DNA of 64,000 nucleotides from the NCBI GenBank assembly GCA_050253075.1, contig JBFWJS010000001.1, positions 352,001 to 416,000 of the forward strand, read 5' to 3'. The translations under genes were made by a program, and so were the position numbers. This DNA comes from Deferribacterales bacterium. Lineage in GTDB: Bacteria; Chrysiogenota; Deferribacteres; Deferribacterales; Geovibrionaceae. The notes beneath the pieces are model-generated. The model was not told the origin of the DNA and searched no databases. It worked only from the letters and a program-made list of their open reading frames with translations. Below are positions 5,962 through 17,639 of the stretch, piece by piece (within the stretch, counting starts at the first letter, position 1; the number at the start of each line of letters is the position of its first letter).

Positions 5962-8385
5962 ATGCGCACTAATATCAAAACGAAGATTTTCGGAGTAGCG
6001 TTTCTGGGGGTAATCTTCATCACACTTTTCAACTCTTTTCTGGATTACAGATCATTCAAAAAGGAGCTGGGACTAAGTACTTCTAAAACTTTCCATCAGG
6101 CTGAAAAAAGTCTTAATAACGTTCTCGAAAGCACATTCAAAGACCTGTCGCTGACGGTATTTACCATCGCGACAGACCCGCAGATAACCGAACTGTTCGC
6201 AAACGGTGACAGAGACGGGCTGGCGAAGGCACTCGTGCCTTATTACAAAGCGATAAAGGATGAGCATGAAATAAAGCAATTTCAGTTTCACCTGCCTCCC
6301 GCCACCAGCTTTTTACGTCTGCATAAGCCTGAGAAATTCGGGGACGACCTTTCATCTTTCCGTGCTACGGTCATCGAGACAAACAAGACTCAGAAGCCTA
6401 TAACAGGGCTCGAAGTCGGACGTGGAGGACCGGGGCTCAGGGTTGTCTACCCTGTCTTTCACAATGGCAAACATGTAGGCAGTGTCGAATTCGGCGGATC
6501 TATCAATAACATAGTAAAGCAGACAGCAGACCTCTACGGCATGCAGTACTCCATAGGCATACTGGACAGCGTATTTAAAAAGGCTAAGAGGTTCGAAGCT
6601 GAGCCCGCAGACGTTGTCGTTGATAATGTCGTCTACTACATGCACTCATCCGAAGCCATGCCTTACTTCCTGCAAAACAGCAAGAATGGCTCGGCTACAT
6701 ATGAAGGCGATGCATACCGGATATATCCTGTGGAGCTGAGAGACTATACAGGCAGTGTCGCAGGCGATCTTATGCTTGTGATGAATGTGCAGGATCTCAT
6801 CACCTCCGAGTGGAAGGCGCTCACCTTCAAACTGTTCACAAACATACTGCTGGCGATGGCGTTATCAGCCATACTTTTTGCCATTATCAAGTTTGTCTTC
6901 AAACCTCTGAACAACTTTGTCGCTATGGCAAAGGAGCTGGCGAGCGGACAAGGAGACCTGTCAAAGAATGTTCCTATCAAGCTCCCCGATGCGAAAAAGA
7001 TGGTCAAAGGGAACGACTCCGCTTTCGCTCAGCACAGCGAATCGACACCGTGCTGGTATTACATGGGCGTTTTCGGCAGTAAGAAATGCCCGCAGTTATC
7101 ATCTGTGAAATCATGTCAGGCATGCTCCGTATTCAAAGCGGCATCCCACGACGAGATATCCGAGATGTCCATATTCGTTAATATATTCCTGAGAAACATA
7201 GAAAAAGACTTCGCACAGGCACTCTACACCCTGTCTAATGCTAGTGAGGCGACAGTGCCTATCTCGAGCGGTATCGTGAATGTGACAGGCAAAAGTGACG
7301 AGAACGTTATGCTCTCCTCACAGGTGGCTGCCGCCAGTGAAGAGATGAGCACCACCATCTCCGAGATAGCACAGAACAGCACAGACTCCGCAGGCAAAGC
7401 GGAAGAAACCGTCAGCATGGCAGAGGAAGGCGGACATGCCGTTATGGATGCAGCCAGATTCTCCGAAGAGGCGACAAAGGTTCTCGACTCTCTGAAAGAG
7501 GAGATCAGCGGACTGAAAGACAACGCACAGCAGATAGGTCAGGTGATAAACGTTATCGACGATATATCCGAACAGACAAACCTGCTGGCACTTAACGCTG
7601 CCATTGAAGCGGCCAGAGCGGGCGAACACGGACGTGGCTTCGCCGTTGTTGCCGACGAAGTAAGGAAACTCGCTGAAAAGACCCAGGCATCCACCAAAGA
7701 GATTGCCACCATGATACACAGGATACAGTCTGATGTTACCCACGTTATATCATCTACAGACACAGTTTCCGAATCTGTTACGAAACAGCGTGAGGTCGCA
7801 GGGGGGCTGGCATCCAACTTCGACAACATCGTCAACTCCATCAGGGAGCTGAGCGACCTTGTGACTGGCATATCCGCAGCGGTGGAGGAGCAGTCCACTG
7901 CAACGGGCGAAATAGCCGCCAGCGTAGAGAGCGTAGCGACTCTCTCGGGAGATACAAAGGATGTGGTGAACTCGTTCATATCCGAGATAGACGTGCTCCT
8001 CAGCAACATGGACAAGCTGTCCACTATGTTTTCCAGATTTAAACTGAGCCGTAAAGGGACAGTATTTGCAAAAGGAAAGCTGGAGTATCTGAACCTGACA
8101 AAGATGGTTTTCAACTGTTATCTGAAAGATCAGTGCGAGCTGTCATTCCCCAGCACGGGAGCCACAGCGTTCGGTAAATATATGGATACCAGCTTCAGAA
8201 AAGAGTTCCCCGGTGAAAATGCCGAAGAGCTGAACCGTGTCATACAAACGTTCCACTCATCATGCACTAATTCCATAAAGCGAGTGCACGACCATGTGGC
8301 GGACGGTTCATCGCTTGTTCATGTGGTGGACAGTGTTCGGGATCTATGCACCGTCTTCGACAGACTGATGGAGAAATACAGCTAG
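5962..8385 (+). CDS. Methyl-accepting chemotaxis protein (Cache-type sensor, HAMP with Cys-rich insert, MA domain, CZB-like C-terminus)
   Basis: Two TM segments flanking [25 protein letters not shown]; signalling hairpin [35 protein letters not shown]. Confidence 0.93.
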
Positions 8386-10974: not shown

Positions 10975-12348
10975 ATGGGGACTTTAATTTTCAAACACTC
11001 AACAGACATTCGGTCAGATGTGCACACGGCTTTTTCGTGGCATGAAAAAGAAGGTGCTCTTCAGAGGCTCACCCCCCCGTGGGAAAAGGCGGAGCTGGTG
11101 GAGAAGTCTGAAGGGATCGACGTCGGCGCCAAATGCACGCTGAATGTTGGTGCGGGCTTCCTGACCCTGCGCTGGCAGGCGGAGCACATCGAGTATGAAA
11201 AAGACCGCCATTTCAAAGACAGACAAAACAAGGGGCCTTTCAGCCTGTGGGAGCACTCCCACGATTTTTATGCGAATGATGGAATAACGACTATAGAAGA
11301 CACGGTTGAATATCGTCTTCCGTTACATTTTATATCGAAATATATCGCAGGTTCAATGATAAAAAAGAAACTGACGAAAATGTTCAGATACAGGTCGTCA
11401 GTATCGAAAAATGATATAGAGACAATTGCATGCTATAAACCCGAGCCGAAGACCATAGTGGTGTCAGGCTCCAGCGGGGTCGTGGGCTCTGCCCTGATAC
11501 CATATCTGCAGACACAGGGGCACAAGATCATCCGTCTGGTGCGCAATGAGAAACAGCTCTGCATCGGAGACGTATGCTGGAACCCGAACGCAGGCATTGT
11601 CGAGGCTCAGTTCGAGCATGCGGATGTGGTGATACACCTGACGGGCGAGCCGATAGGCGACACCAGATGGACAGAAGAAAAGAAGCTGTCCATCATAGAC
11701 AGCCGTGTGAAAAGCACAAGCCTCCTAGCAAAAACAATCGCCAGCATGAAAAACCCGCCGAAGCTCCTGATATGCGCATCCGCCATAGGGTATTACGGCG
11801 ACAGAGGCGCAGAGGAGCTCACAGAGGAATCATCCGCAGGCAAAGAGTTTATATCCGACGTGTGCAGCAGATGGGAAGAATCGGCAAAACAGGCAGAGGA
11901 AGCAGGCGTCAGGGTCGTTTACCTCCGCATAGGCGTGGCACTCTCCCCTTCGGGCGGAGCACTGGAGCGCACATATAAGCCAGCATCACTCGGGCTTGGT
12001 ACCGTGCTCGGCAGCGGAGAACAATACCTCAGCTGGGTTGCTATGGACGACGTGCTCTACTCCATGACACACATAATGGAGACAGAATCTATTAAAGGAG
12101 CGGTAAACCTCACCGCACCGAATCCCGTAAAATGGAAAGAATATGCGGATACTTTATCCGCTGTTATGCATAGACCGAGGTTCCTCAGAGTGCCTGCATG
12201 GCTTATCAAGGCCGTATACGGGCAGATGGGGGACGAAGTTCTCCTCGCCAGCGCAAGGGTATATCCGAAAAAGCTGCTTGAAAGCGGATTCACATTCAGA
12301 TACCCTTTATTAGATGATGCTTTAAAGCACCTGCTGGGGAGACAGTAA
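10975..12348 (+). CDS. SRPBCC-domain / TIGR01777 (YfcH-like) NAD-dependent epimerase fusion
   Basis: N-terminal ALQRLTPPW...GPFSLWEHSH; Rossmann SGSSGVVGS; SAIGYYG; C-terminal PKKLLESGFTFRYP. Confidence 0.85.
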   Translation: MGTLIFKHSTDIRSDVHTAFSWHEKEGALQRLTPPWEKAELVEKSEGIDVGAKCTLNVGAGFLTLRWQAEHIEYEKDRHFKDRQNKGPFSLWEHSHDFYANDGITTIEDTVEYRLPLHFISKYIAGSMIKKKLTKMFRYRSSVSKNDIETIACYKPEPKTIVVSGSSGVVGSALIPYLQTQGHKIIRLVRNEKQLCIGDVCWNPNAGIVEAQFEHADVVIHLTGEPIGDTRWTEEKKLSIIDSRVKSTSLLAKTIASMKNPPKLLICASAIGYYGDRGAEELTEESSAGKEFISDVCSRWEESAKQAEEAGVRVVYLRIGVALSPSGGALERTYKPASLGLGTVLGSGEQYLSWVAMDDVLYSMTHIMETESIKGAVNLTAPNPVKWKEYADTLSAVMHRPRFLRVPAWLIKAVYGQMGDEVLLASARVYPKKLLESGFTFRYPLLDDALKHLLGRQ

Positions 12349-13445
12349 TGAGTATTGCATTAAGAATTACATTTATGCTGACGATGACGATAGCCCTCGC
12401 CTTCGGCTTTATGCATCATTTCATAGAAGGATACAATTTCGAAAGGCTTCACATATTCCTCTTCAACCTCTGCTCAGGCGGAACTATCATTCTCTACTTC
12501 ACAATGGATAAAGGACGGATGACAAAGAGGCTTTATGCATTTTTCATATTGTCCTTTGCCTATGCATTTCTCGCTTTTTTCGAGCATTACGGATACGCCA
12601 TAGCCATATCACTGATACTCTTCGGCATAGTGGAATCCGTGCGTAACAGTAAGTTTAAATTCTTTCCTTCAGACTTTTTCACAAGGAAAGTGCCCACAGC
12701 GCAGAAGTTCCACCATGCGTCGCTGCTTTGCCTTTCCATAGGGCTTCTGATATCAATAACTGCTATTATCAATCAGGAATATTACACCTTCATACATTCG
12801 GAAAAGCTAACGCTGAACACATTCTTCCTAGGGTTTTCATTCCCTGTTTCGCTCATATCCCTCAGCGTAATGTTCTCCACCATGCACAAGGCACCGTCGA
12901 ACCTTTTCAGAAATATTAAGGTCATCAGCTTCTGGACGATCACTCTCGGGGTTATTATATTCTTCGTCTTTATACTTTTCGAAGCGATATATCTTGAGCT
13001 GGCGATATCACTTATACTATTTGTCGCAGTATCATGCGTGCTGTACCTCTATATAAAGCTGGGCATAAAAGAACAGCAGAAATCATACCTCACATCGGGC
13101 ATCGTCTTTCTGCTTATGACATCTGTTTCGGGTGTTATATACATTCTCATATATGCCTATGGGTATACCGATCCGTTATATAAAGACCTGACGATCCTCT
13201 ATCACAGGACGCTGGCTCTGTACGGCTGGAACATAAGCGGGCTAGCCGTTATATGCAGATTTAAGGATTTCCCTATCATGCTGCACTCCGGTCCTGCCAT
13301 AGTACTCCATTGGTTAATAGTTTCGATACTTGCTCCTGTGGCGTATTTTAATGCTGCATTTGTTATCCCCACCATAGGGGCTTATTTATTATTTCTTTTT
13401 GCCGTATTCTTTTCTAAAGGGAATTACAGAATAAGAGAGTTTTGA
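12348..13445 (+). CDS. Polytopic membrane protein of unknown function
   Basis: About 11-12 hydrophobic segments; start overlaps upstream stop (TAATG). Confidence 0.75.
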   Translation: MSIALRITFMLTMTIALAFGFMHHFIEGYNFERLHIFLFNLCSGGTIILYFTMDKGRMTKRLYAFFILSFAYAFLAFFEHYGYAIAISLILFGIVESVRNSKFKFFPSDFFTRKVPTAQKFHHASLLCLSIGLLISITAIINQEYYTFIHSEKLTLNTFFLGFSFPVSLISLSVMFSTMHKAPSNLFRNIKVISFWTITLGVIIFFVFILFEAIYLELAISLILFVAVSCVLYLYIKLGIKEQQKSYLTSGIVFLLMTSVSGVIYILIYAYGYTDPLYKDLTILYHRTLALYGWNISGLAVICRFKDFPIMLHSGPAIVLHWLIVSILAPVAYFNAAFVIPTIGAYLLFLFAVFFSKGNYRIREF

Positions 13446-13446
13446 T

Positions 13447-14553
13447 ATGAAGCGGAACGGACTTGTTTTTTTAATTGTTTTTTTAATGCTCGGGGTATTC
13501 TCATATGCATCTGCTGATGAAGAGACGGAATACTTCACCATAGACCATTTCTACAGTGATAATCCGCATCAGGAAGAGCTGGCAGAAGCATTCGCATCGA
13601 AGGTAACATCTCAGCCTGAACGCATAAAAATGCGCCAGACCAACAGCATAAAAATAGCCGTCATCTATCCTGCTATACAGCAGTCAAACTATTGGCGTGA
13701 CAGTGTGCGCTCTATGGACATGCGTATGGACGAGCTGGGCATCAGACACGAAACAGTAAAATACTTCAGCAGACCGTCGGGGGACTACCGGCTCCAGACC
13801 ATGCAGATATCCGAAGCATCCAAAAGCGATGCGGACTACATAGTACTCTCAGTGGATAATGCGAATGTGCGCAGGCTTGTGCCTTCGCTGGTTTCCAAAA
13901 GCAAAGCAAAGATAATGATACAGAACCTGACCACGCCGCTGAAAGAATGGAAACAGCACCAGCCTTTTATGTATGTGGGGTTTGACCACATAGAAGGCTC
14001 GAAACTTCTGGCTGATAAATACAGCGAGGTATTCCCCTCGGGCGGTAAATACGTCCTGCTATACGGAGCAAAAGGGGCGGTGAGCGACCAGCGGGGGGGA
14101 GGCTTCGAAAGCTACGCTCTCTCCAAAGGTTTTGTCGCCGTGTCAAAATACTATACGGATTTCAAAGCTGACAGCGCATATGAAGCAGCGAAATCTGCTC
14201 TGGAAAAAAATGAAGACATATCATTCATATATGCCTGCTCCACTGACATAGCCATAGGCGCATCGAAAGCCGTGAATGAAGCAGGGCTGACGGGCAAAGT
14301 GCTTGTAAACGGATGGGGCGGAACGATAAACGAGCTGAATCTGCTTAAGGAGAAGCTCCTTGATTTCACCGTTATGCGGATGAACGACGACAACGGCGTT
14401 GCCATAGCCGAAGCGGTAAAGATGGACATCTCAGGACAAAGCAAGAACATACCTCTGATATTCAGCGGAGAGTTCGTCATAGCGACAAAAGACATGTCTC
14501 AGAAAGAACTTAATAAACTGACCGAGAGGGCACTGCGATATTCCGGAAAATGA
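13447..14553 (+). CDS. luxP: Autoinducer-2-binding periplasmic protein LuxP homologue
   Basis: Signal peptide; YPAIQQSNYW, IQNLTTP, YVGFDH, SDQRG, YACSTDIAIG, VNGWGG, TVMRMNDD match recalled Vibrio LuxP motifs. Confidence 0.88.
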   Translation: MKRNGLVFLIVFLMLGVFSYASADEETEYFTIDHFYSDNPHQEELAEAFASKVTSQPERIKMRQTNSIKIAVIYPAIQQSNYWRDSVRSMDMRMDELGIRHETVKYFSRPSGDYRLQTMQISEASKSDADYIVLSVDNANVRRLVPSLVSKSKAKIMIQNLTTPLKEWKQHQPFMYVGFDHIEGSKLLADKYSEVFPSGGKYVLLYGAKGAVSDQRGGGFESYALSKGFVAVSKYYTDFKADSAYEAAKSALEKNEDISFIYACSTDIAIGASKAVNEAGLTGKVLVNGWGGTINELNLLKEKLLDFTVMRMNDDNGVAIAEAVKMDISGQSKNIPLIFSGEFVIATKDMSQKELNKLTERALRYSGK

Positions 14554-17500
14554 AAAAGACTAACGGTCTTAGGATATACACATTCTTTATACTATCCATC
14601 ATAATGATGGCCGTGCTGCTGACCATACCCATGCACCTTATGAGCAGCAAATTCATTAAAAATGCCATGATGGAGAAATCTGTCGAGATCACAAAGATAA
14701 ACAACAACATCGCAAAGATGATACTGGAGCAGAAGGCGGACATCCTGCATAGCATCATACACGACATGGAGTTCCTCTTTTCATCTAAGCTGAGCAGCTA
14801 CATCGAAGGCGATATCGCCAAATTCGAAAGTGAGATAACAAAGCTGTATGACGATTCATTCGCTGAAGATGTGGATGTATTCTTCTTTCAGTCAGTAGAC
14901 GGCAAATACATATTCGACGCCAGCACTCCATTTTATGACACCAGCATGATACGAAACTATATGATGGCCAACGGACGCTTCCTGCGTAAAGGGATACGCA
15001 CCATACAGTCCGAGTCCGCAGACGGCACACTCATAGCGCTCACAGGCTCGTCTGAGGCTGTTTATGAAAAGACCGGAGAGCTTGCCGGATATTTCTACAC
15101 CGGCGTAATACTAAACAACGCATCTAACCTCATTAACTCGATAATGCAGTATACGAACCTCTCCGAGGCGGCAATTGTCTTCGGCGACAGCATCGTCGCA
15201 GGCAATACCGAAGGCATGAACAACAACATAATCAAAACATGCTATAACACAAACACTGCCATACTCAGCGGAAACTCTGTGACATACTGCTCAGACCTGC
15301 ATCTGCCGAACGACAGCATCACGCTGAAGTTCTATCAGAGCCTGCCGGACACCTTCCTGCAGAACATAGCTTCCCAAAACAGAAAGATGGGATACACGGC
15401 CATAGCCATTGTGCTGGTGGTGACACTGCTGTCGGGATACGCCATAAACGTGATAACAGTGCGCACACTTTACCGCCTGGTGGACTATACGCATCTCATG
15501 CTTTCGGGCAAACCGGCGACGTATAACTACACCATCATATCCGAATTCAACATGCTGGCAGACCAGATATCAACAGTCAGCAGCAACCTGTCTGAAACTC
15601 AGGCATACATGAAAAACCTGATAAACAACGCAGCAGCGCCCATCGCCGTATGGGATAAGAACGGAAATATCACCCTGTTCAACAAAGCGCTGGAGCACCT
15701 CTCAGGTTTTGCAGGTGAATCTGTACTGGGTAAACACCTCAGCCATATCTACAGCATTTTTCCACAGGCGACAGTATCTGTGGATAACGACAAAAAAGAA
15801 GACACCTATTCGACACAGTTTGAATCGGCGATAACACATAAAACATCGGGCGAGATAAACTTCATCCTGTGGAACATCACAGACGTATACAGCAAAGGCG
15901 ACTATTACGGAACGATCCTGCAGGGGATAAACATAACCGAAACCAAAAAAGCAGAGGAAAAAATGCTTCTCGCATCAAAGGTTGTGGAAAACACCCTCGA
16001 CGGTATACTCATAGTAAATCCCGAAGGGGAGATAATATCCTGCAATGCATCATTCTGTAATATGACCGGATATACCGAAGACGAAACCATAGGGAAGCAC
16101 GTGAGCATGCTGCGTCCTGATAATTTCAGCCCGTCATTTTATAAAAAACTATGGGAAGACCTCTTTAAATACGGAAAATGGAGCGGTGAATACCCCGTCA
16201 GACAAAAGAACGGCAAGAATGTGGATTCCATCATGACTGTCTCCAGCATACGAAACAGCGCAGGGGACATAACAGACTTTATATCTGTGTTCCACGACAT
16301 AACCGAACGTAAAAAGCACGAGAAAGAGATAAAATATCAGGCAACCCACGACAACCTCACAGGGCTGCCGAACAGGCTATTTTTCGCAGAGGAAACAGCG
16401 AAATACATAGACGGATTCGACCCTATCGATGGCGGTCTGTCTGTACTGTTCCTCGATCTGGACAGGTTCAAAACTCTGAACGACACCCTCGGACACACCA
16501 CAGGGGACAAGGTTCTGCAGATAGTATCCGAAAGGATAAAGAACATCATATGCGATGAAGCAGTTGCCGCAAGATTCAGCGGAGACGAATTCACCGTCAT
16601 GTTTACCAATGTGAAAGACAGGGACGATGCATTCAACAGAGCAAAAAGCATCGTGGCAAAGATATCCGAACCGGTATCCGTACAGGGCTATGAGCTCTTT
16701 ATACAGTGCAGTGCGGGGCTTTGCTTTTATCCTGAAAACGGCAAGACGGCATCCGAGCTGATAAAGAACGCAGAGATAGCCATGTATCAGGCGAAACTGC
16801 AGGGGCGGAATAACATTCAGCTCTTCACAGGCGGGCTGGACGAATCCCTGAAAGACAGACTAATACTAGAATCAAAGCTGAACAGAGCCATAGAAAACAA
16901 CAAACTATCGCTCTATTACCAGCCGAAGATAGACCTTTCGAACGACACAGTGATGGGTATGGAAGCACTGATAAGGTGGAATAACCCCGACCTCGGATTT
17001 GTTCCGCCGGATAAATTTATCCCCATTGCCGAAGAGAACGGTCTCATACTCCCCATAGGCGACTGGGTGATAAACAGAGCGCTCGAGGATACGGCAAGAC
17101 TGCACAGAGAGGGCTTCGGCAATCTGAAAGTAGCGGTGAACCTCAGCCTCAGACAGTTCATGAAGAAGGATATAGTACAGCACATCCGTGAAGCTATAAA
17201 GGCATCGGGTATAGAGAATTTCAGCTTCGAGTTTGAGATAACTGAGAACATCTTCACAGAGGATCTCTCCACCATCACAAAGGTGATGAACGAGATAAGC
17301 AGCCTCAATGTAAAATTTGCCATAGACGACTTCGGCACGGGATACAGCTCCATCGGCTATCTGAAAAAGATGCCTATCAGCACCCTGAAAATAGACCGAA
17401 GCTACATCAACAGCATAGACACAGACCCTGACAATGAGTCCATCGTCTCGTCTGTTATCCTTATGTCCAAGAGCCTCGGGTTGAACATAGTGGCAGAAGG

Positions 17501-17639
17501 AGCAGAGACAGAGGAGCAGGTTCAGATACTGAAAGAGATGGGGTGCAACATAGTACAGGGTTACTATTACGGCAGGCCTATGCCTTATGACGAGTTCCTT
17601 GAATTTGTCAGAAAATGGGAAGAATCCCCCTTGTCATAA
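14550..17639 (+). CDS. Membrane sensor with LuxQ-like periplasmic domain, PAS-PAS, GGDEF and EAL domains
   Basis: TM-periplasmic-TM; TGELAGYFYTGVILNN resembles LuxQ periplasm; HDNLTGLPNR, DLDRFK, RFSGDEF; EALIRW, DDFGTGYSS, AEGAET, QGYYY. Confidence 0.88.
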   Translation: MKKTNGLRIYTFFILSIIMMAVLLTIPMHLMSSKFIKNAMMEKSVEITKINNNIAKMILEQKADILHSIIHDMEFLFSSKLSSYIEGDIAKFESEITKLYDDSFAEDVDVFFFQSVDGKYIFDASTPFYDTSMIRNYMMANGRFLRKGIRTIQSESADGTLIALTGSSEAVYEKTGELAGYFYTGVILNNASNLINSIMQYTNLSEAAIVFGDSIVAGNTEGMNNNIIKTCYNTNTAILSGNSVTYCSDLHLPNDSITLKFYQSLPDTFLQNIASQNRKMGYTAIAIVLVVTLLSGYAINVITVRTLYRLVDYTHLMLSGKPATYNYTIISEFNMLADQISTVSSNLSETQAYMKNLINNAAAPIAVWDKNGNITLFNKALEHLSGFAGESVLGKHLSHIYSIFPQATVSVDNDKKEDTYSTQFESAITHKTSGEINFILWNITDVYSKGDYYGTILQGINITETKKAEEKMLLASKVVENTLDGILIVNPEGEIISCNASFCNMTGYTEDETIGKHVSMLRPDNFSPSFYKKLWEDLFKYGKWSGEYPVRQKNGKNVDSIMTVSSIRNSAGDITDFISVFHDITERKKHEKEIKYQATHDNLTGLPNRLFFAEETAKYIDGFDPIDGGLSVLFLDLDRFKTLNDTLGHTTGDKVLQIVSERIKNIICDEAVAARFSGDEFTVMFTNVKDRDDAFNRAKSIVAKISEPVSVQGYELFIQCSAGLCFYPENGKTASELIKNAEIAMYQAKLQGRNNIQLFTGGLDESLKDRLILESKLNRAIENNKLSLYYQPKIDLSNDTVMGMEALIRWNNPDLGFVPPDKFIPIAEENGLILPIGDWVINRALEDTARLHREGFGNLKVAVNLSLRQFMKKDIVQHIREAIKASGIENFSFEFEITENIFTEDLSTITKVMNEISSLNVKFAIDDFGTGYSSIGYLKKMPISTLKIDRSYINSIDTDPDNESIVSSVILMSKSLGLNIVAEGAETEEQVQILKEMGCNIVQGYYYGRPMPYDEFLEFVRKWEESPLS

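Follow-up and report, generated by a model that had tools for sequence, protein, structure and literature searches.

In Vibrio, the periplasmic autoinducer-2 (AI-2) binding protein LuxP and the periplasmic domain of LuxQ assemble into a heterodimer; AI-2 then brings about an asymmetric tetramer in which the transmembrane (TM) helices are displaced (PMC8050422). In Vibrio cholerae, the gene of another binding protein, NspS, lies directly upstream of that of MbaA, a membrane GGDEF-EAL receptor with an SGDEF motif whose ligand shifts the balance between cyclase and phosphodiesterase (PMC8079147). Here we describe a gene pair resembling both systems in a Deferribacterales genome, within a stretch of 64,000 nucleotides (the window; contig JBFWJS010000001.1, positions 352,001 to 416,000). 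The upstream gene is a luxP ortholog encoding a periplasmic binding protein of 368 aa (window positions 13447..14553, + strand), identified by its open reading frame (ORF), Pfam, phmmer and the alignment of its ligand pocket. The downstream gene (14550..17639, +) encodes a membrane receptor of 1029 aa with the order TM1, LuxQ-type periplasmic domain, TM2, HAMP-like linker, PAS, PAS, GGDEF (with the motif SGDEF) and EAL, according to its ORF, Pfam, NCBIfam, hydropathy and a family profile. We consider it likely that AI-2 controls cyclic di-GMP (c-di-GMP) through this pair, no phosphorelay being involved. A preliminary description of the locus, made from the sequence, had listed both ORFs, their ATGA overlap, six LuxP motifs and a periplasmic TGELAGYFYTGVILNNASNLINSI stretch; all of these are present, the motifs and the stretch in the translations. 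The overlap, read directly from the sequence, joins the luxP stop with the receptor start (14550..14553, +), and may provide translational coupling of both genes.

In a phmmer search against structures, the 368-aa protein matched V. harveyi LuxP chains with E 1.7e-84 over residues 29-366, the next of 42 matches being at 2e-15. A Sec-type signal peptide was predicted by eye at residues 1-23. The AI-2 contacts in the structure 1JX6 are Q77, S79, W82, N159, R215, T266 and R310 (PMC9687752). After mapping the V. harveyi numbering by hand count on the phmmer alignment, these positions and D267 and W289 (Q77, S79, W82, N159, R215, T266, D267, W289, R310) correspond to Q78, S80, W83, N160, R216, T266, D267, W290 and R311 of the window protein. 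In this sense, the alignment to the V. harveyi ligand residues proposed in the preliminary description found 7/7 published AI-2/borate contacts kept, as are D267 and W289, which we take to be further contacts. For comparison we used 88 loci, composed of the best 80 of 161 luxP relatives from a GTDB genome scan (with no Vibrio among them) plus nine loci of relatives minus one duplicate (L021, the same stretch as L012); L070, with a fragmentary luxP, was dropped from the LuxP alignment. The positions of W82, N159, R215, T266, W289 and R310 are invariant in 88/88 aligned LuxP proteins, and D267 is kept in 87/88, Q77 in 85/88 and S79 in 82/88 (the remainder having T). By sequence, the window protein is a true member of the LuxP family; the closest named LuxP among the relatives listed belongs to a Denitrovibrio metagenome-assembled genome (L021, 57%).

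The receptor has hydrophobic segments at about residues 6-32 and 283-304 (hydropathy), and between them a LuxQ-type periplasmic double-Cache domain at residues 33-282 (14646..15395, +), called with PF09308, a family profile, AlphaFold2, Foldseek and VIA. The Pfam LuxQ-periplasm family matched residues 42-229 above its cut-off (29.5 versus 25.7 bits, E 7e-7); it does so once in the own genome and in 0/14 control genomes. The periplasm alone gave a marginal LuxQ match in a single-sequence search against the PDB (E 0.0037), and a profile of 79 partner periplasms had significant matches with LuxQ chains only (E 1e-34 to 2e-23; next, 0.34). The AlphaFold2 model of residues 33-282 reached a mean predicted local confidence (pLDDT) of 92.7, and with it Foldseek placed LuxQ at all ranks from 1 to 6. 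A wide VIA search of the model gave Z 18.4 and 17.6 with LuxQ (root-mean-square deviation, rmsd, 2.9 in both, with 211 and 203 residues aligned, respectively), followed by the next Cache domain at Z 14.3 and rmsd 4.9. A generic Cache with no LuxQ match, which the preliminary description had named as a refuting outcome, is not what these searches gave; LuxQ is the best match by Pfam, by profile and by fold. No dCache_1 (PF02743) was detected in the receptor at E<=0.1, and an AI-2 receptor of the dCache_1 (CahR) type was ruled out by this absence and by LuxQ ranking above dCache_1 structures. The 13 close homologs of residues 25-300 all carry PF09308, GGDEF and EAL. The NCBIfam LuxQ model (NF041947) matches residues 12-481 only, with 80.9 bits against a cut-off of 1200.

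Following TM2, a HAMP-like linker spans residues about 304-355 (approximately 15459..15614, +; family profile). A profile built without the window's family matched residues 281-361, TM2 included, with E 2.5e-16; Pfam HAMP (PF00672) gave no match in the window receptor itself and scored near its cut-off in the relatives L043 and L045, the linker being common to the family. The architecture given in the preliminary description (TM, periplasm, PAS, PAS, SGDEF, EAL) was correct except for this linker, which it had overlooked. The two cytoplasmic PAS domains occupy residues about 357-468 and 477-588 (15618..16313, +; Pfam, with the bounds of the first taken by homology from the same-genus locus L013). 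They are followed by the GGDEF domain at residues 598-755 (16341..16814, +), with SGDEF at 677-681, and the EAL domain at 776-1010 (16875..17579, +), both from Pfam and alignment. The roles of the active-site residues of these enzymes are well established. D636, N644 and D653 are kept in GGDEF, with no RxxD inhibitory site, and the EAL motifs are all there (E805, EITE, DDFGTGYSS at 926, K947, E983 and QG), so both catalytic sites look intact in the alignment. As had been claimed, HisKA, HATPase and REC were not found in the receptor by Pfam at E<=0.1.

In the 3.0 Mb genome, 33 ORFs score for GGDEF and there are 5 matches to PilZ, which show what is, on this gene content, a working c-di-GMP network. 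Six of its ORFs score for both GGDEF and EAL, and a recognisable GGDEF-like motif was seen only in the receptor and in C8:21571-24162 (also SGDEF). Paralogs in the own genome are at most 28% identical to the receptor output and the LuxP partners of other lineages 37-42%, values that we judge to be near the level of unrelated GGDEF-EAL proteins and which do not decide between one and several origins of the output.

The proposed mechanism, taken from Vibrio LuxPQ, is that borated AI-2 from neighbours would reach a two-protein receptor and change c-di-GMP with no phosphorelay. LuxP would sit on the receptor periplasm, and AI-2-borate would close LuxP and rearrange the receptor dimer; TM2, HAMP and PAS-PAS would then relay this movement and shift the balance between cyclase and phosphodiesterase. 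Physical docking of LuxP on the periplasm would be expected by analogy with Vibrio LuxPQ; complex predictions with two alignments (from which L029, with X letters, and L012, with a broken receptor, were dropped) scored 0.30 and 0.08 with respect to a mark of 0.32, controls not being folded. We give a modest edge to a lowering of c-di-GMP by AI-2 through this receptor, because in Vibrio the ligand ends the symmetry of the kinase-on state, a symmetric dimer is what cyclases require, and the receptor has SGDEF together with a complete EAL. The pair may in this way turn a signal of neighbours into a stay-or-leave decision. An overlapping sub-case, rather doubtful to us, is a phosphodiesterase gated by LuxP and AI-2 in which GGDEF serves as a GTP-sensing or spacer domain. 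The motif is SGDEF in 3/4 same-genus proteins and GGDEY in all five receptors from two sister genera, and the best NCBIfam matches are phosphodiesterases, all under cut-off. However, the metal- and GTP-binding residues are kept, the congener G003 has a plain GGDEF, the locus L059 couples the same input to a GGDEF-only protein, and in MbaA the SGDEF motif is used in catalysis and required in vivo (PMC8079147).

No luxS was found in the own genome (G000, 99.89% complete) by a search that detects it in 5/14 control genomes, nor in any of the 41 genomes of this lineage examined. There is also no LuxO ortholog above cut-off (best 378 versus 800 bits, among many generic sigma-54 activators), and the LuxN model gave nothing above cut-off; the genome check for luxS and luxO proposed in the preliminary description thus found neither. 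A gene for S-adenosylhomocysteine hydrolase (sahH), the enzyme of the LuxS-free methyl cycle, is present. Since its genome is without luxS, the host probably eavesdrops on its neighbours. Of the 41 related genomes, 10 have luxP, and it is these 10 that have the LuxQ-type domain, with a single copy of each and neither ever alone, although these genomes are kin and not independent. Both genes lie side by side in the congener G001 and, in a different chromosomal context, in five genomes from two sister genera.

There is published evidence for AI-2 retention by an ortholog. The LuxP of the same-genus, syntenic locus L013 (genome G002) is identical to WP_013012133.1 of D. acetiphilus, and shares 191/365 residues (52%) with the window LuxP and the same residue at all 13 pocket positions examined. 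According to the supplement sheet for Fig 2c of PMC12268683, WP_013012133.1 purified from luxS+ E. coli induced a V. harveyi reporter 47-55-fold, and about 1-fold when purified from luxS- E. coli. We count this retention in favour of AI-2 as the input of the window pair. Judging by the identity with the D. acetiphilus protein and by the Denitrovibrio match of L021, the host is probably a Denitrovibrio-like member of Deferribacterota.

The survey of luxP neighbours called for in the preliminary description showed that coupling to GGDEF-EAL recurs, in 28 of 80 partners. A LuxQ-type domain was found in 79/80 partners, the exception being the L012 gene broken by a stop. The outputs, called with local profiles seeded on Pfam scans (47/80 partners were Pfam-scanned directly), were 36 kinases, 8 hybrid kinases, 28 GGDEF-EAL, 1 GGDEF, 2 SpoIIE and 1 methyl-accepting chemotaxis protein (MCP), with no output in 4/80 (short, cut or PAS-only); these shares are biased, since there is no Vibrio among the best 80 of 161. 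The 28 GGDEF-EAL partners comprise 8 of the window's family, 12 of Stappiaceae, 6 of Oceanospirillaceae and 2 of Aeromonadaceae; of all GGDEF-EAL forms scanned, the two of Aeromonadaceae score highest for LuxQ-periplasm (E 2e-53 and 2e-40). luxS was found in 22 of 50 genomes checked (of 79), and among GGDEF-EAL carriers in 0/12 Stappiaceae, 6/6 Oceanospirillaceae and 2/2 Aeromonadaceae, for genomes whose completeness is not given.

LuxP and periplasm trees were compared on 32 hand-picked of the 79 rows (quick LG+G4 trees, unrooted and with long-branch warnings), and a quick tree served for the placement of all 79. Both trees share 18/29 splits (0.3 on average and at most 3 after shuffling), among them every split with support >=95 (13 and 14, respectively). 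The type of output differs between members of the same supported clade: SpoIIE is found together with MCP, and hybrid kinase, GGDEF and kinase are found together over two phyla. A single clade of GGDEF-EAL forms was rejected by approximately unbiased (AU) tests (p-AU 2.4e-6 for the periplasm and 6e-5 for LuxP); as there is no root, repeated gain looks the same as an ancestral form repeatedly replaced, and these trees carry no direction of grafting. One supported LuxP clade (L020, L059, L082 and L094) joins a Deferribacterales genome with Campylobacterota and has hybrid kinase, GGDEF and kinase outputs, a pattern that points to movement of the cassette from one phylum to another. The preliminary description had inferred a graft of the LuxPQ input on a c-di-GMP enzyme. 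By sequence, fold and genome context we do find a LuxPQ-type input, in a non-Vibrio host, attached to a GGDEF-EAL protein without a phosphorelay. A one-off graft is not borne out, because Stappiaceae, Oceanospirillaceae and Aeromonadaceae have this architecture too, and kinases, MCP and SpoIIE are further outputs of the cassette. We lean slightly towards the view that LuxP plus TM-LuxQ periplasm-TM-HAMP is a portable input cassette for borated AI-2, spread over many, largely marine, phyla and repeatedly re-coupled to c-di-GMP enzymes, chemoreceptors, PP2C phosphatases and kinases. If so, Vibrio LuxPQ would be one wiring among several; in luxS-less Denitrovibrionaceae and Stappiaceae the c-di-GMP wiring would act as a single-step switch for eavesdropping, and in luxS-positive Oceanospirillaceae and Aeromonadaceae it would complete a quorum circuit that needs no phosphorelay.

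Several observations weigh against AI-2 control of c-di-GMP by this pair. Identity between the receptor periplasm and LuxQ structures is as low as 13%, and V. harveyi F206 is G in the window LuxP, as in 49/88 proteins, being variable across the family. All 38 proteins of the PMC12268683 sheet were positive in the retention assay, so this assay shows retention and neither specificity nor the borated or other chemical form of the ligand. Eight of the 88 luxP loci have no adjacent partner; a LuxQ-type match exists elsewhere in 4/8 of these genomes, two of them weak, and was absent in the other 4/8, for genomes of which the completeness is not given. The congruence of the LuxP and periplasm trees shows co-inheritance, not contact. 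Additionally, two of three congeners are damaged at the pair. In G002 luxP and receptor are separated by a DDE transposase gene (L013:4558-5958, +), although XOB65837.1 and XOB65838.1, consecutive accessions of cluster members, suggest another strain without the transposase. In G003 there is an in-frame TAA in the periplasmic coding region of the receptor (L012, between 5429 and 6035), which may reflect a pseudogene or an assembly error.

Beyond the phosphodiesterase sub-case, it is conceivable, but in our view improbable, that this is a real LuxP-coupled c-di-GMP receptor answering to another natural cue, such as another borate diester, borate availability or a LuxS-independent AI-2-like compound. 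The lack of luxS in this lineage and in the Stappiaceae carriers and the variable F206 position would agree with it, and LuxS-independent AI-2 routes have been proposed, as mentioned in PMC7584622. However, all published AI-2 contacts are kept, retention by the ortholog needed luxS in the expression host, and 8/8 Oceanospirillaceae and Aeromonadaceae GGDEF-EAL carriers have luxS. Decay or uncoupling of the pair, in which LuxP would bind AI-2 with no control of the enzyme and the enzyme would answer mainly to PAS, seems quite improbable as well. The insertion sequence in G002 and the stop codon in G003 point that way, as does the faster divergence within the genus of LuxP and periplasm (52-57% identical) versus neighbouring genes (73-87%); nevertheless, the window genes are intact and overlapping, the pair stays adjacent in G001 and in the five sister-genera genomes in a different context, the pocket is invariant, and both genes are present or absent together. 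Finally, a sugar-binding protein of an ABC transporter beside a generic Cache GGDEF-EAL gene, the LuxPQ likeness being incidental, is largely refuted and very remote: Pfam gives the window LuxP only Peripla_BP_4, NCBIfam gives weak sugar-binding matches and the NCBI name of the L013 ortholog is an ABC-type sugar transport component, but the LuxP match exceeds those to sugar binders by some 70 orders of magnitude, no permease, ATPase or other transporter gene lies beside luxP (Pfam, ORF list), dCache_1 is absent and LuxQ is the top fold match.

Returning to AI-2 as the input of the pair, it is like Vibrio LuxP-LuxQ in the LuxP ligand pocket, the LuxQ-periplasm fold and the adjacent genes, and unlike it in that further PAS, GGDEF and EAL take the place of HisKA-HATPase-REC and that, with respect to the LuxU-LuxO relay, the host has no luxS and LuxO is under cut-off. 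NspS-MbaA shares the gene order and the SGDEF motif, but its ligand is a polyamine and its binding protein is of another family (PMC8079147), whereas the window pair has LuxP and a LuxQ-type domain as its input. Judged by its domains, the pair belongs to the LuxP and LuxQ-periplasm families and is neither a LuxQ kinase nor a member of NspS-MbaA, and our verdict is that the pair would work most like NspS-MbaA with an AI-2 input. The locus, with luxP directly upstream of the gene for a LuxQ-periplasm protein, is not an ABC transporter operon; as for an LsrB or Lsr transporter, no transporter genes are adjacent, lsr genes having been looked for at this locus and not genome-wide.

AI-2 is already linked with c-di-GMP by other means. 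It directly activates the cyclase rpHK1S-Z16, a dCache_1 protein (PMC7584622), and YeaJ, with a GAPES1 domain (cited through PMC12268683 and PMC12834153). As in the proposed pair, AI-2 alters c-di-GMP in these proteins with no phosphorelay, but it is bound in their own sensor domain, whereas the window pair has a separate LuxP with both borate arginines; the boron-tested dCache receptors PctA and TlpQ prefer boron-free AI-2. In V. furnissii, AI-2 lowers c-di-GMP through AsrK-AsrR, which differs in being a dCache_1 kinase with a response-regulator phosphodiesterase and in using a low-boron form of AI-2 (PMC11796354). As for luxP outside Vibrio, Neptuniibacter, Marinomonas, Desulfuromonas and Desulfovibrio were reported in 2008 to have it beside PAS proteins, and luxS-negative carriers to listen, perhaps, without producing (PMC2561040); that paper calls the neighbours transcriptional regulators, and its text gives 0 matches for GGDEF, EAL, diguanylate and cyclic. 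A 2016 Table 1 has 1 c-di-GMP enzyme among 115 LuxQ-periplasm proteins, with no comment in its four LuxQ passages (PMC4822843). LuxP was still called Vibrio-only in a 2020 paper (PMC7584622), PMC12268683, in which one of the three LuxP-type proteins tested was from Deferribacterota, took LuxP as a sensor-only or transport protein, and in a 2026 review it appears solely with the LuxQ kinase relay (PMC12834153). We found no paper on a LuxP-coupled GGDEF/EAL receptor in the open-access literature, although subscription papers, bioRxiv and other supplements might hold one, and such a receptor is apparently uncharacterised so far. Domain shuffling of sensors is common, and every ingredient has precedent (non-Vibrio luxP, AI-2-activated cyclases, pairs of binding protein and SGDEF-EAL receptor), the combination being unreported in the literature found.

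The status of AI-2 as a signal outside Vibrio has long been debated, since in luxS mutants effects on signalling are entangled with effects on metabolism (PMC2561040). This difficulty does not arise in a luxS-less host whose receptor is dedicated and has an output that can be measured directly, and the pair would reveal whether unrelated enzymes can be put under the control of the conformational switch of LuxPQ. Cultured carriers exist, namely Stappia indica (luxS not found), Zobellella aerophila (luxS present), Oceanisphaera arctica and Pontibacterium granulatum, and both genes could be co-expressed in a laboratory c-di-GMP reporter strain. An oil-field model column was the source of D. acetiphilus, and the pair may have a bearing on biofilms of oil-field and marine anaerobes.

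The survey also contains other luxP partners. In Ca. Vecturithrix, luxP lies beside a LuxQ-periplasm-MCP gene (L045:7098-9065), a candidate AI-2 chemoreceptor, and in Desulfobacterota beside LuxQ-periplasm-SpoIIE genes (L025:7218-9455 and L049:7156-9393), candidate AI-2 phosphatases; luxS was not found in these three genomes. Partners ending past HAMP or PAS with no enzyme domain (L072:7149-8096, L074:3001-3954 and L065:2943-4709) are candidates for truncated receptors or output-less decoys. Many Arcobacteraceae loci (L027-L087) have luxP with a LuxQ-periplasm kinase, and luxS was present in 5/5 checked, which makes a complete AI-2 circuit possible in Campylobacterota.

Upstream of the pair, a gene for a multi-pass membrane protein of 365 aa (window 12348-13445, +) ends 1 bp before luxP. 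It is 82-87% identical across the genus, far above LuxP, and has no Pfam or NCBIfam match; its Atlas matches are below 0.9, the weak lead being an NnrS-containing cluster (score 0.79, 33% of members). It was rejected as a third component since it lacks Pfam and NCBIfam matches, stays below 0.9 in Atlas and, among the loci fetched, occurs only in those of the same genus. The preceding gene (10975-12348, +) fuses an SRPBCC/polyketide-cyclase-like N-terminal domain, under the Pfam cut-off, with a TIGR01777/YfcH-type oxidoreductase, and may share a transcript with luxP. A promoter scan gave 17 sites, versus 12.4 +/- 3.3 in shuffles. Further upstream, 5962-8385 (+) encodes a dCache_3 chemoreceptor of 807 aa with a C-terminal extension and, past the HAMP region, a cysteine-rich insert with three Cys-containing motifs at about residues 365-395.

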